A stretch of DNA of 35,022 nucleotides from a virus. Every line of letters begins with the position of its first letter. Within the stretch, counting starts at the first letter, position 1. The stretch lies in UHGV virus genome UHGV-0182056; one strand, given 5' to 3'. The notes below the pieces were generated by a model. That model was not told where the DNA came from. It searched no databases and saw only the letters and a list, made by a program, of their open reading frames with translations. A program made the translations under genes and the position numbers. This document shows, one piece after another, positions 125-34,035 of this stretch.

Positions 125-200
125 GGCCCCTTAGCTCAGTGGTTAGAGCAGGCGACTCATAATCGCTTGGTCGCTGGTTCAAGTCCAGCAGGGGCCACCA
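125..200 (+). tRNA. ileX: tRNA with CAT anticodon; sequence looks like enterobacterial tRNA-Ile2 (lysidine-modified CAU, ileX/ileY type); intact gene used as the prophage attachment site
   Basis: 76 nt with 7-bp acceptor stem GGCCCCT/AGGGGCC, D-arm AGCTCAGTGGTTAGAGC, anticodon loop CTCATAA, T-arm GGTTCAAGTCC and 3' CCA. Ile2 rather than Met is from recall of the E. coli gene and the yqjH neighbour, not from the anticodon. Confidence 0.8.
154..200 (+). repeat. attL core: 3' 47 bp of the tRNA, exactly repeated at 33978-34024
   Basis: Exact 47/47 direct repeat read from the sequence (GACTCATAATCGCTTGGTCGCTGGTTCAAGTCCAGCAGGGGCCACCA). Confidence 0.85.
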
Positions 201-23338: not shown

Positions 23339-23950
23339 CTACGTAACCACAGTTAATGTGTGCATCCTGTCTCGAATTGCATCACACGTCTCATCAAAAA
23401 GCTTGGTGATGGTTGTACGGTTCAACTCCGCCTCTTTCCAATAATTTTGCCCGTCAAATTCTGGATCGCTATGCTGAAACGATATTGACTCTGAAAGGCA
23501 TTCCTTCCGGAAACGGTCCAAGATTATATAAACCTCTGGTGAGATGAACGGTTTGTTAGATTCAACACTTGTGACAAAAGTGTTAAATGCATCAAAAAAA
23601 ACTTTCAACCTTCTAAATTTTCTCTCTTCAAATGGTTCGTTGGGGTCAACATGATCCAGCGCAGGCCTCAGCTTAAGCACGCTTTCTCTGGTTTCAAACA
23701 TCGAATTCCAAATGAGACTATATGCTGATAACTCCTTATCAAAATACGCTTTCGTTACATAAACAGAATTGTCTAACTTAGCCTTTATTCTTTCATTAGT
23801 TGCACTCAGTTGTGATTGAAATTCAGCAATATCTTTGTTTAGCCGCGACTTATATCTTTCTAAATAAACTTTCCCGATCCAAACAAATATGCCAGATGCA
23901 ACAAAAGACACCCCACCCAACGAAGCCAGAACTTTAAAGACTAAATCCAT
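23339..23950 (-). CDS. Accessory membrane-anchored protein of unknown function (N-terminal transmembrane helix, coiled-coil, cytoplasmic domain)
   Basis: 203 aa; hydrophobic segment LASLGGVSFVASGIFVWIG near the N-terminus; AT-rich; lies where P2 carries old/tin. Confidence 0.5.
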   Translation of the reverse strand: MDLVFKVLASLGGVSFVASGIFVWIGKVYLERYKSRLNKDIAEFQSQLSATNERIKAKLDNSVYVTKAYFDKELSAYSLIWNSMFETRESVLKLRPALDHVDPNEPFEERKFRRLKVFFDAFNTFVTSVESNKPFISPEVYIILDRFRKECLSESISFQHSDPEFDGQNYWKEAELNRTTITKLFDETCDAIRDRMHTLTVVT

Positions 23951-24918: not shown

Positions 24919-27333
24919 TTAATACAGGTTCCGCCACTTATCATCTTCCTGCAAACGCTGGTTCCGATAGAAGACACGCAGGCCTGCTCCTGACGGAATA
25001 CTGCCGCCGCGAAGGAGTAAATCGACCTCTTTCTCGCTGCCATCAAATCCTCTGGACTTCAGTTCATAGACGAGCTGCTGGCGTTGATGGTCTGTAATTC
25101 GCTGTTTGTAGTCTCTACGCCGTTTCGGTTTCACCAGGCGTAACCTTGCAGCCAGTTCCCGGCGCTCTTTTTTGTTCATACTGTGCAGGTAATCGTGCAA
25201 TCCCTTGTCATCCATGCGGGTAATGTCCGTTCTGGTGTCCCCATCAGCTGATTTATCTTTCCCCTGTTTGTTCAAATTTTCAGCAAGGGGACAGTTATTG
25301 CCACGAGTCCAAGGGGCGCAAGCGCCCTGGTCGGCTGCCACCTCCTGAACGTCAACGGCCTTACGAACCATTTTCCACTTCACTGCATGAGTGCAGATCT
25401 TGCCCTCTGCAATGGGTGACCAGATGCCATAAATACGAATACCGTGATCGCCATAGGCGGTTGGCTCTTCGTTGATTTCATAAGCGGTTCTGATGAGTTG
25501 ATATTTGCGGGGAACCAGTACGCCGCCCTGATTCATGATGTAGGTGGCAAAACAACCAGCATCAGCAGCAGCCAGGATGGCATCAAGGCGCGGGTTATCC
25601 AGTACCGGCGCACCTGCTTTTTTGTCACCCTGTTGCCTTGCCGCCTGACCAGCCAGCAATCGCAGTTCACGGTAAGCCTGACGCCCCGGAATGCCAAAGA
25701 AGCGGAATTGCTGAACACGATGCAGAGACGCCCAGGCATTAACGTATTCAGCGTTATCACGCAGGGATTTACCCGTTTCCTTACTGATCTCGCCAGCCAG
25801 ACCACGCCCGTCAATATTCTTACTGATATATTTCGCAATGTAGCTTGTCGGCGTTCCTTTGCGCGGGTTTATCAGCTCAGACTTAAAGCGTGGCCCCGTG
25901 TTATTGCCCAGCTCCTCGCGGTCTTCACGGATGGCAAACTTACGCAACAATGCAGTAATGGCGCGGCGGTCTTTTTTGCGCATGAAACACAACAGGTGCC
26001 AGTGAACTGTGCCGTCATGATGCGGCTCAGCCACCCGCACGCCATACCAGCGCAACCCGGCTTTGTGCATAGCCTTACGAAATGCAGCAAACATGCCGAC
26101 CAGATAATCGCTGCTTTGTCTTACTGTCGCGTTGGTCCAGGTCGGGTTTGGCCTGCCGTTATTTAGCGTGGAATGGAAACGTGACGGACAGGTGATGGTG
26201 TAGAAAACGGCGCAGTCACCACGCATTTCCGCGATAAGCTCCAGGCCTTTAACACAGGCCATCATCTCGTTGCGGCGATGCGCCGGGTTGCTGCTGCTGG
26301 CGTTTACCACATCCTCCATGTTCAGCGTGTCGCCGTCTTCGTTCACCAGTTCATGAGAACGGAAAAACTCCAGCGACTTACGGCGCTGCTCACGTTTATG
26401 CATCACGGCTTCATAGCTGACATAGGGAGATGCTTTTTTGCTGACCAGGCAGACAGCACGCAACTGCTCTTCCCGCCATTCGCAACGCATCTTCCATAAT
26501 TTCCGATACCACCAGTCGGCGCAAAGCATACGCGCCAGCGAACCCGGAATGAGTTCATAAGGCACAGGTTTGCGGCGGTTTCTTTTCCGGCGGAGTTGCT
26601 CAAACGCAGGCGGTATGACATCCAGTCGCAGGGTTTCTGCAGCCACCTTTTCCCATGTCTTGCGGATTTCTTCTGGCTTAACATCATCGGAGGCGTACAA
26701 ATCACCACAAGCGGCATCAAGACACATGCTCATATGCGCAGCGACAAGGGTGGACAGGCGTTTCACCTGATCCTGACTCATTTCAGGCAGGATCAGCAGG
26801 CCGTCCAGCCCTTCATGGCTTGCCATAAAGCGAAAAGAAGTGGATAGCTGACTGTCGCGTACATGCTCCAGTCGTTCCAGACATGGCTTAATCGTCTCAC
26901 GCAAATAGCGGGAATAAGCCTTTGGTCTGCCCAGGCTGCTGAAGTATTCAATACGTTGCATCAGCGGCTTGCTGATATGGGAAGGCTGAGCGTTAACGTC
27001 CGCCAGAATGACCATGTCTGGATTAAAACGCTGCTGCTCATGCGCCAGCTTTGCCCGGCTAATGAGCTTATCCTGCTCCATTTCGCGCTGGACAGGATCA
27101 CGGGATTCATTAAAGAAATAACGCTCCCAGACCTGATCACTCAGTGCCTCGCGGCGCAGTTGTTCCTGCTCGTTATCGGCAGCGTACAGAGTGATCAGGT
27201 TTGAAAGCGCAGAAACCGGCGCAACTTCCGCCGGGTCCAGATAAGGGTTAATGGCCTTTTTCGGGATGTTCCATGAGAATGCTGCGGCGACCTCGTTAAA
27301 GCCGCTGCAGTTGTTCATATCAGCATGGCTCAT
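24919..27333 (-). CDS. A: Replication initiation protein gpA (rolling-circle nickase)
   Basis: 804 aa; size and position fit P2/186 A. Confidence 0.85.
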
Positions 27334-29768: not shown

Positions 29769-30005
29769 TCAGGCTTGCATTGCGACTTCGCAGCCTTGGG
29801 CCGCTTCCATCGTCAACGCGAACATGTTGATTTCGATAAGGCTGTTAACTCCGGCTTTTTTCCTGATGGGAAGGCGGTTTTCCCGGATCATTTGGCGGGC
29901 ATAGCTAGGCTTGTAACCAGTACGACGACAGAACTCATCCAGTGTGATGAATGGCTCAGATATCACAAGGTTGATGCTGGGGCGCATTGAAAAATTACTT
30001 TTCAT
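29769..30005 (-). CDS. apl: Apl/Cox-like excisionase and lytic-switch regulator
   Basis: 78 aa, first gene of the lytic operon, divergent from cI. Confidence 0.7.
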   Translation of the reverse strand: MKSNFSMRPSINLVISEPFITLDEFCRRTGYKPSYARQMIRENRLPIRKKAGVNSLIEINMFALTMEAAQGCEVAMQA

Positions 30006-30106: not shown

Positions 30107-30721
30107 ATGTCAAACACAAAAGAAAACCCTAATGAGATTTCAACTTTCATTTTTCCATCTCAAAGTGGGGGAAGAGAGGCCATAACACGCATTCTTCAGG
30201 CTTATGGATTCAGCACAAGACAAGCTCTATGTGATCATCTCGGCGTCTCTCAAAGCACAATGGCTAACCGCTGGATGCGTGACACTTTCCCACATGACTG
30301 GCTTATAGCCTGCCATCTGGACACAGGTGTACCCTTGCTTTGGCTAACTACTGGTAAGGGCACTCCAAAAACCACGCCAAATGAAGATCACGGATTAACT
30401 TTGCAATTAAGCGAAATCACAAATGGGATTCTAAACAACACAACCTTGATTCATTATGACCTACACCTAATTCCTCAAAACACCACAGATCCGTTTCTTG
30501 TCAAATTTGAATCGACGACGTATCTCGTCAGTGAATATAAAGGCGAGATCAATGACGGCACCTGGCTGATTGAGATAGATGGTTTTGCGAGCATCAGACA
30601 GGTTTACCGTCTGCCTGGCGGGCGAGTTCGTGTTGAAAACGGCCCTGCATCATTTGAGTGTGCGGCCTCTGATGTAAAAGTTTTAGGGAAAGTGGCAAGC
30701 AAAATAGATAACGTGGACTGA
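30107..30721 (+). CDS. cI: CI immunity repressor (186 type)
   Basis: 204 aa, divergent from apl; N-terminal HTH-like region (STRQALCDHLGVSQSTMANRW). Confidence 0.75.
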   Translation: MSNTKENPNEISTFIFPSQSGGREAITRILQAYGFSTRQALCDHLGVSQSTMANRWMRDTFPHDWLIACHLDTGVPLLWLTTGKGTPKTTPNEDHGLTLQLSEITNGILNNTTLIHYDLHLIPQNTTDPFLVKFESTTYLVSEYKGEINDGTWLIEIDGFASIRQVYRLPGGRVRVENGPASFECAASDVKVLGKVASKIDNVD

Positions 30722-30745: not shown

Positions 30746-31294
30746 ATGAGAGTTTTAGTCACAGGCGTATTAATTTTGTCATCATTTGCTGCAATTGCAG
30801 CACCTGAACAATTCAAAAACATTAATGACTTGATGGAAAACTATAACGATTATCCAACTTATACCGTAGACGGTAAGGATTTTCCATCTTTCAAAATTTT
30901 ATCTGAAAAGCCTTTACACATCCAAATCTCGCCGCGCACTTTATCAGGGAGTTCAACGAAAGATATTAAGTACGAATCAGACAGGGCAGCCATTTACGCA
31001 GCATATCGTACTTTGTATCAAACGCCTGCAGACAGGGTTAAAGTCACAGTATTACCTATTTCAATTACCCCCCAGCCTCGGAAGGTAGAGTATATGACGG
31101 AATATAAATATGATTTTAGCATTACAAAAAAGCAGGCAATAAATTTACTCCGCAGACACAGCAATATATTGAATGAAGACCAGTTAATGTCCGCCAATGG
31201 TGAATGGAGCAAAGCATTTGAAAAGTGCTGTTACCTTGAAGAAGGTAAGCCCGGTTTATCAATATTTGCTAAAGAGTTAATCACGCAAAGGTAA
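30746..31294 (+). CDS. Moron: secreted/periplasmic protein of unknown function, apparently in the lysogenic cI-int operon
   Basis: 182 aa with N-terminal signal peptide MRVLVTGVLILSSFAAIAAP; AT-rich; stop 5 bp before the int start. Confidence 0.55.
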   Translation: MRVLVTGVLILSSFAAIAAPEQFKNINDLMENYNDYPTYTVDGKDFPSFKILSEKPLHIQISPRTLSGSSTKDIKYESDRAAIYAAYRTLYQTPADRVKVTVLPISITPQPRKVEYMTEYKYDFSITKKQAINLLRRHSNILNEDQLMSANGEWSKAFEKCCYLEEGKPGLSIFAKELITQR

Positions 31295-31299
31295 AAAAC

Positions 31300-32313
31300 G
31301 TGGCAGTAACAAAACTCGCTAATGGTAAGTGGCAGGCTCAGGTCTTCCCCAACGGTAGGGATGGGCGGCGTGTACGCCGCCTATTTGCAACTAAAGGGGA
31401 AGCTCTGGCATTTGAGCGATATATAAAAGACCAAACAATTGATAAGCCTTGGCTTGGTGAAAAAAAAGATAAGCGACGTGTTATTGACCTTGTTGATACG
31501 TGGTTTAATGCACACGGTATTACGTTGTCTGATGGTCAGAAAAGAAAAGATACGATGGAGTTTGCTTGCATAGCAATGGGTAACCCTCTTGCGAGTGAGT
31601 TTAATGCGAAATTGTTTGCCAGCTATCGTGAGCAACGTTTAAGCGGAAAAATTACTCGTTCCAACAGAGTAAAAGCAGTCACACCACGAACTGTGAATTT
31701 AGAACTGGCTTACTTCCGCGCAATGTTTAATGAATTGAAGCGTCTGGATGATTGGATGGCTCCTAATCCACTCGAAAATATTCGTGAATTCAAAATTGAT
31801 GAAGCGGAGTTGTCTTGGTTGACAGTAGAAGAGGTAAAAGTGCTTCTTGCTGAGTGCGAAAAAAGCAGAGCTAAAGACCTGTCGATGATCGTACAAATTT
31901 GTCTGGCCACTGGTGCTCGTTGGGGTGAGGCAGAATCCCTGTCTGGCATGCAAATCAGTCCCGGGAAGATCACCTTCACCAAAACAAAGGGAAAAAAGAA
32001 CAGAACTGTTCCAATAAGTGATGAACTATACGAAATGCTTCCACGCATCAGAACATCAAAACCTCTGTTTAAGCCATGCTACTCCGCATTCAGAACTGCA
32101 ATAAAAAGGGCCAAAATTGAATTACCTGATGGCCAGCTTTCGCATGTTCTTCGACACACTTTCGCAAGCCACTTTATGATGGGGGGGGGCAACATTCTTG
32201 TACTCCAACGCATCCTTGGACATACAGATATTAAGGTAACGATGCGCTACGCACATTTTTCCCCTGACCATCTGACAGAAGCAGTTGAGTTAAATCCTTT
32301 AAATCATCTTTAA
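31300..32313 (+). CDS. int: Tyrosine integrase (P2/186 Int family)
   Basis: 337 aa; C-terminal HVLRHTFASH...LGHTDIKVTMRYAHF catalytic region; GTG start. Confidence 0.9.
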   Translation: MAVTKLANGKWQAQVFPNGRDGRRVRRLFATKGEALAFERYIKDQTIDKPWLGEKKDKRRVIDLVDTWFNAHGITLSDGQKRKDTMEFACIAMGNPLASEFNAKLFASYREQRLSGKITRSNRVKAVTPRTVNLELAYFRAMFNELKRLDDWMAPNPLENIREFKIDEAELSWLTVEEVKVLLAECEKSRAKDLSMIVQICLATGARWGEAESLSGMQISPGKITFTKTKGKKNRTVPISDELYEMLPRIRTSKPLFKPCYSAFRTAIKRAKIELPDGQLSHVLRHTFASHFMMGGGNILVLQRILGHTDIKVTMRYAHFSPDHLTEAVELNPLNHL

Positions 32314-32350: not shown

Positions 32351-33703
32351 TCAATCAAAAAAATCCTTTTTGAAATCGCTACTACTAGATAATCCAGGTC
32401 TTATTTTTTCAATAACATCTTGACAAGCCGCAGGTTGATCATCAAGTGCCTTGGACGCTTTTTCCTTTATTTTTGGTATATTATTAAACCTACCTTTCAT
32501 CATTCCATCCGGCCCATACGCACCCCAAATACCTGCAGCGCAGATATTCACTATCAATTCAAAACATTCAAGATCATTCATTAATAAAGCAATATCTTTA
32601 TCATAAACGCTAGCACTTCTAGCGAATGAGTTCGCCTCATCAAATGTTGAAGATCCTGCTTTTGAAAAAATATTACTAATTAATTTAGCTCTAGCCCATT
32701 CTTTATGCTTCACAACATTCATCAATACAGGGCTGAATTTATACTTATTCAACACATCATCAATATTATTCATAAAAAACTTATCTAATACAGCCTTGTC
32801 CAATGCCAGAAGACTTCTTACTATTTGAACAGGATGTCTCAAATATGTATGTTGATCTGCTGTACTTGTAGACGAAATTGTACTTTCAAACATTTTATTA
32901 ATTCTTAAATAAAATATATCATCTAAATCCTTTATCAAATTTGAATTTGTTGAAATTGACTCCATTAAAAACTTAGTTTTATTTTCATCTGAACTGCACT
33001 CCTCTAAAACCTGTTTTTTTATTTGTTGAAGAACTTGATCATTCAAAGGATTACTCGACAGTCCAAGAAGATATCTCTTAGCATTAACTTGTATCTGTTC
33101 GTTCGGATTATCAAGAGATTGGAGTAGTTTTTTTAATAGATAGGAGTAACCATCATGATGAAGATTCTTTACACCTTCATTTACTACTGTAGCATGATCT
33201 TGTATGTTTGTTGTAGGAAATAAATATGCATTTGTTAATTTTGATATAATTTCATCTGCAACTTGTGTTGTAGAAAGAATTGGTTTTGAAAGGAATCTGC
33301 CAATTGTTTCTGAAAAGACATATCTTGCTTCTTCGGCTGTTGGTTTGTGACCGGAAGGATGCGCTGCTTTGTTTCTAAGAGTTTTCAATACGGTTAGAAA
33401 ATCAGCATCTATATCAGTAATTATTTTTTCAGATTTTAAGCGATTCAGCAAATCATTCTCAAAAACCTTTTGCTCTTCCCTTTTTTTATTTATCTCTGCA
33501 AATATGGCCCTTGCAACTTTATTTGTCGATGCCATTCCATTTAGTTTTTTTAATAAATCTTCAAATATAGCGATAAAAGATAAAACAACACATGCGCGAT
33601 GAGCACCTGTCATATAGCAAGTTAGTGCTTCGCGCATATACTCCTTAAGCTCTACATCAACAATATCACTTATAAGTTCTTCCATGTCCCTCAAACTTGA
33701 CAT
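32351..33703 (-). CDS. Accessory protein: N-terminal HEPN-like (DUF4145-like) domain with an Rx4H motif plus a large C-terminal helical domain; candidate single-gene abortive-infection/defence protein
   Basis: 450 aa, strongly AT-rich, between int and attR; ...LTVLKTLRNKAAHPSGH... gives R-x4-H; RBS GAGGGG upstream. Confidence 0.5.
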   Translation of the reverse strand: MSSLRDMEELISDIVDVELKEYMREALTCYMTGAHRACVVLSFIAIFEDLLKKLNGMASTNKVARAIFAEINKKREEQKVFENDLLNRLKSEKIITDIDADFLTVLKTLRNKAAHPSGHKPTAEEARYVFSETIGRFLSKPILSTTQVADEIISKLTNAYLFPTTNIQDHATVVNEGVKNLHHDGYSYLLKKLLQSLDNPNEQIQVNAKRYLLGLSSNPLNDQVLQQIKKQVLEECSSDENKTKFLMESISTNSNLIKDLDDIFYLRINKMFESTISSTSTADQHTYLRHPVQIVRSLLALDKAVLDKFFMNNIDDVLNKYKFSPVLMNVVKHKEWARAKLISNIFSKAGSSTFDEANSFARSASVYDKDIALLMNDLECFELIVNICAAGIWGAYGPDGMMKGRFNNIPKIKEKASKALDDQPAACQDVIEKIRPGLSSSSDFKKDFFD

Positions 33704-33977: not shown

Positions 33978-34024
33978 GACTCATAATCGCTTGGTCGCTG
34001 GTTCAAGTCCAGCAGGGGCCACCA
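33978..34024 (+). repeat. attR core: truncated 3' tRNA copy (47 bp), identical to 154-200
   Basis: Exact repeat; upstream tRNA sequence is absent, so not a second tRNA gene. Confidence 0.85.
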
Positions 34025-34035
34025 GATATAGCAAA

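Follow-up and report, generated by a model that had tools for sequence, protein, structure and literature searches.

The integrase gene of an apparently complete P2/186-like Escherichia coli prophage contains an uninterrupted run of nine guanines (G9) that is one base shorter or longer in natural isolates on several SNP backgrounds, and either change truncates the encoded protein ahead of its catalytic tyrosine. The run is probably an accidental homopolymer that acts as a hotspot of replication slippage, with ±1 products that lack the catalytic tyrosine and a prophage that should neither excise nor integrate. The run was studied in a window of 35,022 nucleotides (UHGV virus genome UHGV-0182056), which denotes the whole stretch of DNA analysed and to which all coordinates refer unless another sequence is named. 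A sequence-only reading of the window had proposed that slippage at this run would truncate the integrase and lock the prophage in place, and this interpretation is supported overall.

The product of the integrase gene, int, matches the Pfam families Int_N (PF24624; 1.3e-33, 116.2 bits against a curated cut-off of 27) and Phage_integrase (PF00589; 6.2e-23, 81.9 bits against a curated cut-off of 27.1). The catalytic domain of the HP1 integrase (1AIH; E 8.2e-66) can be aligned to residues 168-335 with no large gaps. The protein is 60% identical to the Int of phage 186 and 84.8% identical over 335 residues to the integrase of Klebsiella phage ST13-OXA48phi12.1, a P2-like temperate phage that is the closest named phage by Int. 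R207, H282, R285, H308 and Y317 make up the catalytic set; each falls within a conserved block of the alignment with HP1 Int (1AIH) and is assigned by the HP1 residue numbering. Common to this Int, the HP1 integrase and the P2/186 family are the R...HxxR...H...Y residues, and with the HP1/P2/186 family it further shares the box II sequence HTFASHFMM-x-GGNILVL, the order cI-int-att and integration at the 3′ end of a tRNA. Its domains, residues and att location place the protein, a tyrosine recombinase, clearly within the HP1/P2/186 family of phage integrases. The possibility that the int of the window is a pseudogene or an assembly error was rejected: the frame is intact and full length, and the identical protein occurs in 242 index blocks and two complete genomes. 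The features of the gene are as follows.

31300-32313, plus strand: int, HP1/P2/186-type tyrosine recombinase of 337 aa, intact (Pfam, HP1 alignment)
31918-31920, plus strand: Arg207 codon (in ATGARW), 5′ of the tract and present in the truncated forms (HP1 Int alignment)
32143-32154, plus strand: His282-x-x-Arg285 (HVLR), 5′ of the tract and present in the truncated forms (alignment)
32181-32189, plus strand: G9 homopolymer; public contigs also hold this allele with G8 or G10
32221-32223, plus strand: His308 codon (in LGH), gone after a +1 or -1 shift
32232-32239, plus strand: out-of-frame stops, TAA 32232-32234 closing the G10 product and TAA 32237-32239 the G8 product
32248-32250, plus strand: codon of the nucleophile Tyr317 (in RYAHF), gone after a +1 or -1 shift

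The run (GGGGGGGGG) is preceded by T at 32180 and followed by C at 32190, so that the coordinates given for it inside the integrase coding sequence by the sequence-only reading are exact. The same reading had the tract encode MMGGGN in int, and both parts of this claim hold: the codons are ATG ATG GGG GGG GGC AAC (M293 M294 G295 G296 G297 N298), and the gene is identified by the Int_N, Phage_integrase and HP1 integrase (8e-66) matches. The nine guanines comprise the third base of the Met294 codon, the GGG codons of Gly295 and Gly296, and the first two bases of the Gly297 codon (GGC). Two opposite-strand ORFs across the tract (44 and 49 aa) were dismissed as spurious because they lie inside the well-supported int gene.

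The G9 run is the longest homopolymer of the 35-kb window and its sole G or C run of seven or more; the remaining long runs are two A8 and several A7 or T7 runs. One of the two A8 runs lies in int itself and the second at 23594-23601, apparently within a 203-aa ORF on the minus strand (23339-23950). About 0.14-0.28 runs of nine or more G or C are expected in 35 kb of the same composition, and two or more G8/C8 matches were present in 23 of 100 shuffles. GGG accounts for 18% of the glycine codons of the prophage, and with this codon usage an unbroken G9 is expected in ∼3% of Met-Gly-Gly-Gly motifs. The run is genuine, only mildly unusual and compatible with chance codon choice. Since both the random-sequence and the codon-usage nulls are unremarkable, selection for the tract is not claimed.

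Loss of one guanine (G8, -1) gives a 312-aa product ending ...HFMMGGATFLYSNASLDIQILR, and gain of one (G10, +1) gives a 311-aa product ending ...HFMMGGGQHSCTPTHPWTYRY. The expectation that a shift of one base in either direction would truncate Int before its catalytic C-terminus is thus borne out, as both products end ahead of His308 and Tyr317: R207 and H282/R285 are present in them, and H308 and the nucleophile Y317 are absent. Tyrosine recombinase chemistry requires the catalytic tyrosine nucleophile. The 311- and 312-aa forms should be catalytically dead, and because the catalytic tyrosine is gone from them, both excision and integration would be expected to fail.

RNA polymerase slippage is possible on long homopolymers, which can provoke it, and the run might accordingly be read as a site of programmed recoding, where transcriptional slippage or ribosomal frameshifting makes a truncated Int isoform, such as a regulatory DNA-binding form; a truncated Int would keep the N-terminal arm-binding and core-binding regions. 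However, the alternative frames stop after 14-15 unrelated residues and encode no domain or anything else recognisable. The run is also missing from close and distant homologues, so there is no conserved recoding signal, and recoding is a very improbable explanation of the tract.

The lengths that the run takes in nature were surveyed by searching a public collection for the exact sequences of the predicted G6 through G12 products, and the G8 and G10 alleles were read from assembled contigs. The exact predicted G8 and G10 products were both found. Six contigs carry G8 and three carry G10, with the intact protein in 242 index blocks, although clonal isolates inflate these counts, and neither contigs nor index blocks can be taken as independent samples. 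The DNA of the variant contigs displays clean single-G indels in an int that is otherwise unchanged. The presence of G8, G9 and G10 versions of the same allele in public contigs agrees with the earlier description of the tract as slippage-prone, and its length varies between strains rather than being invariant across them. The G9 form makes up ∼96% and the frame-shifted forms ∼4%, and this dominance of G9 suggests that the hotspot is mild over the sampled time scale. Two of 5426 complete E. coli genomes carry the allele, both as G9, and the one IMG/VR contig carrying it is also G9. Metagenome scans with a flank-anchored pattern and with a right-flank-only pattern returned 0 matches.

Length variation is restricted to the tract and to single-base steps. 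In-frame G6 and G12 products and ±2 tract products are absent from the public collection. The A8 run of int (31460-31467), which lies across Glu-Lys-Lys codons near the 5′ end, is the second homopolymer of the gene, and the 90- and 57-aa products predicted for ±1 changes in it are likewise absent from the collection; it is a weaker control, as such short products are perhaps never called as genes. A sister allele in which the run is interrupted (GGT GGG GGG, 121 blocks) has none of its ±1 products in the public collection. Frameshifts in 9 of 251 for the G9 allele against 0 of 121 for the interrupted sister give p=0.034 by Fisher's test, on counts that are not independent.

Up to 10.9 kb of flanking prophage was compared between contigs to place the variants on haplotypes. 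G8 occurs on a 31193A/25340G haplotype in GCA_900479265.1, ERR1995446 (these two being possibly one isolate), ERR13482074 and SRR24987566; SRR32903574 has it on the 31193G background, like that of the window. In SRR24504109 and SRR13000442, which private SNPs distinguish from one another, G10 is combined with 27870C. The 27870C background also has G9 members (contigs L001 and L044), and a further contig, L006, combines G9 with 31193A and does not cover position 25340. Judged from these haplotypes, G8 and G10 together fall on three or more SNP backgrounds, which points to a minimum of three independent events, each passed on within its haplotype. The prophage genes adjoining int are full length in the G8 and G10 contigs, which suggests that the slip events were recent.

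A sequencing or assembly artefact, in which G9 is stable in all cells and G8 and G10 are miscalls from long-read, Ion Torrent or PCR-amplified libraries, is the first alternative that the contig data have to be weighed against. Spurious indels are known to arise at homopolymers (PMC8808543), the finished genomes and the IMG/VR contig are all G9, and the variants are exclusively ±1, as miscalls would give. However, the variants follow SNP haplotypes and turn up again in different projects, as random miscalls would not, and the A8 run of the same gene is without such variants. A -1 change at a shorter G7 run of a related integrase, described below, recurs in 24 contigs drawn from at least 10 runs, and Illumina homopolymer indel artefacts are a serious problem mainly above ∼14 bp (reviewed in PMC8808543). 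Because separately sequenced isolates of the same haplotype have the variants in common, heritable slippage is favoured over random read error. Part of the variants may be sequencing error, the haplotype sharing argues that most are real, and an artefact is an unlikely account of them as a whole. Replication slippage is also the origin expected from E. coli biology, in which mononucleotide runs are indel hot spots, and G:C runs of 7-8 bp are described both as such and as outliers of the genome, those of 8 bp already being outliers (PMC8510543).

Frameshifts at the same codons are present in two related integrases. The P0135/P0077 integrase reads CGG GGG G-C, a -1 change in a G7 run (CGG GGG GGC), in the 24 contigs mentioned above, which derive from at least 10 runs or metagenomes and differ at two SNP sites in the gene. 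The repaired, in-frame sequence is absent from the public collection, and the -1 frameshift is a fixed state in this lineage; the 2 SNP sites in 11 sequences are too few to show whether the original frame is still used. An Edwardsiella-type allele (P0078) has a -1 change in a G8 run, and its intact form (P0137) is present on 13 contigs. The occurrence of -1 shifts at the same codons in two relatives suggests that the site is a recurrent breaking point wherever G-rich codons are used.

The related integrase with the -1 fixed in 24 contigs is encoded on contig L050 at 1501-2439 (also on L051-L059 and L008), and ∼1.2 kb downstream (L050 3688-3927) lies a 79-aa C-terminal integrase fragment with the codons ATG ATG AAC GGG GGA AAT, which looks like what is left of an element that occupied the site before. 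A 302-aa protein from an ENA contig (P0110) diverges at the tract codons, where …HFMMNG is followed by DRKSVV. When checked by hand, a ±1 shift did not appear to give this tail, and the protein may instead reflect a contig junction there, or a rearrangement.

The element that carries the tract is a prophage of ∼33.8 kb with int near its right end, bounded by a 47-bp exact direct repeat (154-200 and 33978-34024). The features of the prophage that bear on integration, excision and cargo are listed below.

125-200, plus strand: tRNA with anticodon CAT (ileX), of which the 3′ 47 nt (154-200) form the attL core
29769-30005, minus strand: Cox/Apl-like excisionase-repressor (PHROG 575, 8e-23), the expected partner of Int for excision
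30107-30721, plus strand: 186-type CI repressor (Pfam Phage_CI_repr and Phage_CI_C), upstream of int on the same strand
32351-33703, minus strand: PD-T7-3-like defence protein of 450 aa, cargo between int and attR (PADLOC PD-T7-3 2.9e-16; Pfam DUF4145/AF_1680)
33978-34024, plus strand: attR core, 47-bp exact repeat of 154-200 and right prophage end, from which the flank of L006 diverges

The tRNA is called Met (CAT) by ARAGORN and is annotated by PGAP in a complete genome as tRNA-Ile next to mug and rpoD; it should be taken as Ile2 (ileX). NfeF is encoded beyond the right prophage end. The prophage also encodes gpD, tape measure, sheath, tail fibre, capsid, terminase, portal, gpA and CII, and on this gene content it looks like a complete P2/186-like prophage of E. 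coli. The gap between cI and int holds a 182-aa ORF (30746-31294, plus strand) with a hydrophobic, signal-like N-terminus, which is present in all contigs of the prophage and gave no match in Pfam or PADLOC.

The tract itself is not conserved. The motif at this site in 120 homologues is X-G-G-N-I-L, where X is N in 56, R in 28, S in 11, A in 5, G in 2 and K in 2. The conserved glycines are Gly296 and Gly297 only, and the mixture at X indicates that residue 295 is free to vary; HP1 Int has an asparagine at the position of Gly295. A conserved Gly-Gly-Gly motif in homologous integrases, which the sequence-only reading had named as evidence against its proposal, is therefore not what the homologues display: the motif is X-G-G, with Gly at X in 2 of 120. 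Relatives at ∼85% Int identity have MMRGGN (CGN GGG GGN) with G runs of 5-8, as against nine here, and no relative that was examined carries G9 without interruption at this site. Among 34 genome loci, a set biased by the bait used, MMGGGN is widespread in distant relatives (40-58% identity), where it is encoded by mixed GGT, GGC, GGA and GGG codons with G runs of at most 6. Every full-length intact member retrieved from the 90% cluster has MMGGGN. The sister allele with the interrupted run (342 aa, 96-97% identical, ∼96% at the DNA level) uses GGT GGG GGG, as does Escherichia sp. E1V33. The unbroken G9 was seen only in the allele that ends ...SPDHLTEAVELNPLNHL and is accompanied by the PD-T7-3-like cargo. 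On these comparisons the tract appears to be lineage-specific, without retention in orthologues.

The alignment of the window with the sister allele points to a mosaic structure of this part of the gene. Identity between the two is 95-99% as far as the tract, the 83 nt just before it having 1 mismatch; it falls to ∼79% in the final 130 nt of int, after which the cargo is unrelated (window ∼32160-32313 against L045 2302-2545). The tract therefore lies on a mosaic junction, and the run may owe its origin to a point change or to the recombination junction. Box II, being conserved, may provide the left homology arm when cargo is exchanged. A search for the donor of the 3′ end of int and the cargo returned only the same two E. 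coli genomes. The interval between int and attR holds a 401-aa DUF7837 protein in L045-L049, a protein of 399 aa in L009 and proteins of 316 or 324 aa in L050-L059. The unrelated cargo that sister int alleles carry at the same place suggests that the int-att interval is a hot spot for cargo or defence genes.

The pattern of conservation also bears on whether the tract is an adaptive contingency locus, kept as a reversible ON/OFF switch of Int by which the host grounds a defence prophage and the phage regains mobility. Both OFF lengths (G8 and G10) occur naturally, each one slip from ON and in otherwise intact prophages with full-length adjoining genes, and the host might gain by retaining the PD-T7-3-like defence gene aboard. 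However, the tract is interrupted by GGT, GGC or GGA in sister alleles and in the distant relatives that have the GGG peptide, residue 295 is variable, the tract is expected at ∼3% from codon usage alone, the OFF forms are few (∼4%), and no ON revertant is nested in an OFF clade among the few haplotypes compared. Reliance on homopolymer switches is not known from mismatch-repair-proficient E. coli. An adaptive contingency locus is thus improbable. The narrower proposal that G9 is a reversible mobility switch, in which G8 or G10 grounds a functional defence-carrying prophage and a return to G9 re-arms excision, is marginally less probable again. If it were true, a fraction of every lysogen population would always be non-inducible for phage release, and E. 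coli would harbour a phage integrase whose phase variation depends on a homopolymer. The tract is an ordinary lineage-specific slippage hotspot rather than a demonstrated phase-variation device.

Comparison with known systems places the tract between contingency loci and mutational hot spots. The poly-G/C contingency loci of Campylobacter, Neisseria and Haemophilus resemble it in having a coding G run of 8-10 in which a ±1 change truncates the product and whose length differs between isolates; tract-dependent truncation is exemplified by C. jejuni (PMC4004267). Here, the length differences between isolates that shift the frame are present at the level of contigs, and the tract is not retained in orthologues. 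In contrast with the contingency loci, this tract is lineage-specific, without orthologue conservation, near the 3′ end of the gene and in a mismatch-repair-proficient species. Contingency loci switch genes on and off, whereas only length differences between isolates are seen here. The G9 of int is one base longer than the G:C hot-spot runs of the E. coli mutation-accumulation data, which come from mismatch-repair-defective laboratory lines (PMC8510543), whereas the int variants come from natural isolates. Grounded or defective prophages offer a third comparison. Domestication is expected to begin with the catalytic loss of Int while the rest of the prophage is still intact, and the G8 and G10 alleles are alike in this respect; in the related P0135/P0077 lineage, a frameshift at the same site is fixed. 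The lesion of the int allele would be one slip, reversible and confined to a defined hotspot, as opposed to the deletion or IS insertion in grounded prophages.

The accidental slippage favoured here would proceed as follows. The G9 run would have arisen by codon accident in the lineage of a complete P2/186-like prophage, because the invariant Gly296 and Gly297 and the variable residue 295, here Gly, have G-rich codons right after ATG. In replication, the run would occasionally gain or lose one G and yield a G10 or G8 allele, the proteins of which would keep the N-terminal DNA-binding part, Arg207 and His282/Arg285 and, without His308 and Tyr317, would be dead enzymes. A lysogen with G8 or G10 could not excise its prophage, and released genomes could not integrate. 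The prophage and its PD-T7-3-like cargo would be grounded until a compensating slip brings back G9. The origin by replication slippage, the inactivity of truncated Int and the locking of the prophage are the three steps that we infer from sequence.

A literature search for homopolymer-controlled phage integrases or excision found nothing relevant, and the locus is therefore regarded as a new example of an already known type of event. Knowledge of integrases or of slippage is not changed by the finding. Its significance lies in a one-base slip at a predictable site that strips the integrase of its nucleophile and is repeated in natural E. coli and in related integrases. The G8 and G10 alleles would provide a traceable natural case of the first move of an intact prophage toward domestication, and the tract could serve as a ready marker for whether hosts favour grounded prophages, here with a PD-T7-3-like defence gene. 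From a practical standpoint, the site will yield calls of a 'frameshifted integrase' in annotation pipelines and prophage-completeness tools.

Two of the G9 contigs differ from the window in other ways. Contig L006 has the same int and att core as the window, followed by sequence unrelated to the nfeF flank (from the window equivalent of 34015-34027 onward), a sign that the host background or the insertion context differs; its cargo gene is called at 444 aa as opposed to 450 aa in the window. In E. coli PSS-07 (L001, NZ_AP027673.1, 1-888), a deletion fuses a truncated DNA adenine methylase gene to a truncated tape measure gene, and both fused genes are annotated as pseudogenes. The int of PSS-07 is still G9, and the decay of this prophage is by a route other than the int tract.
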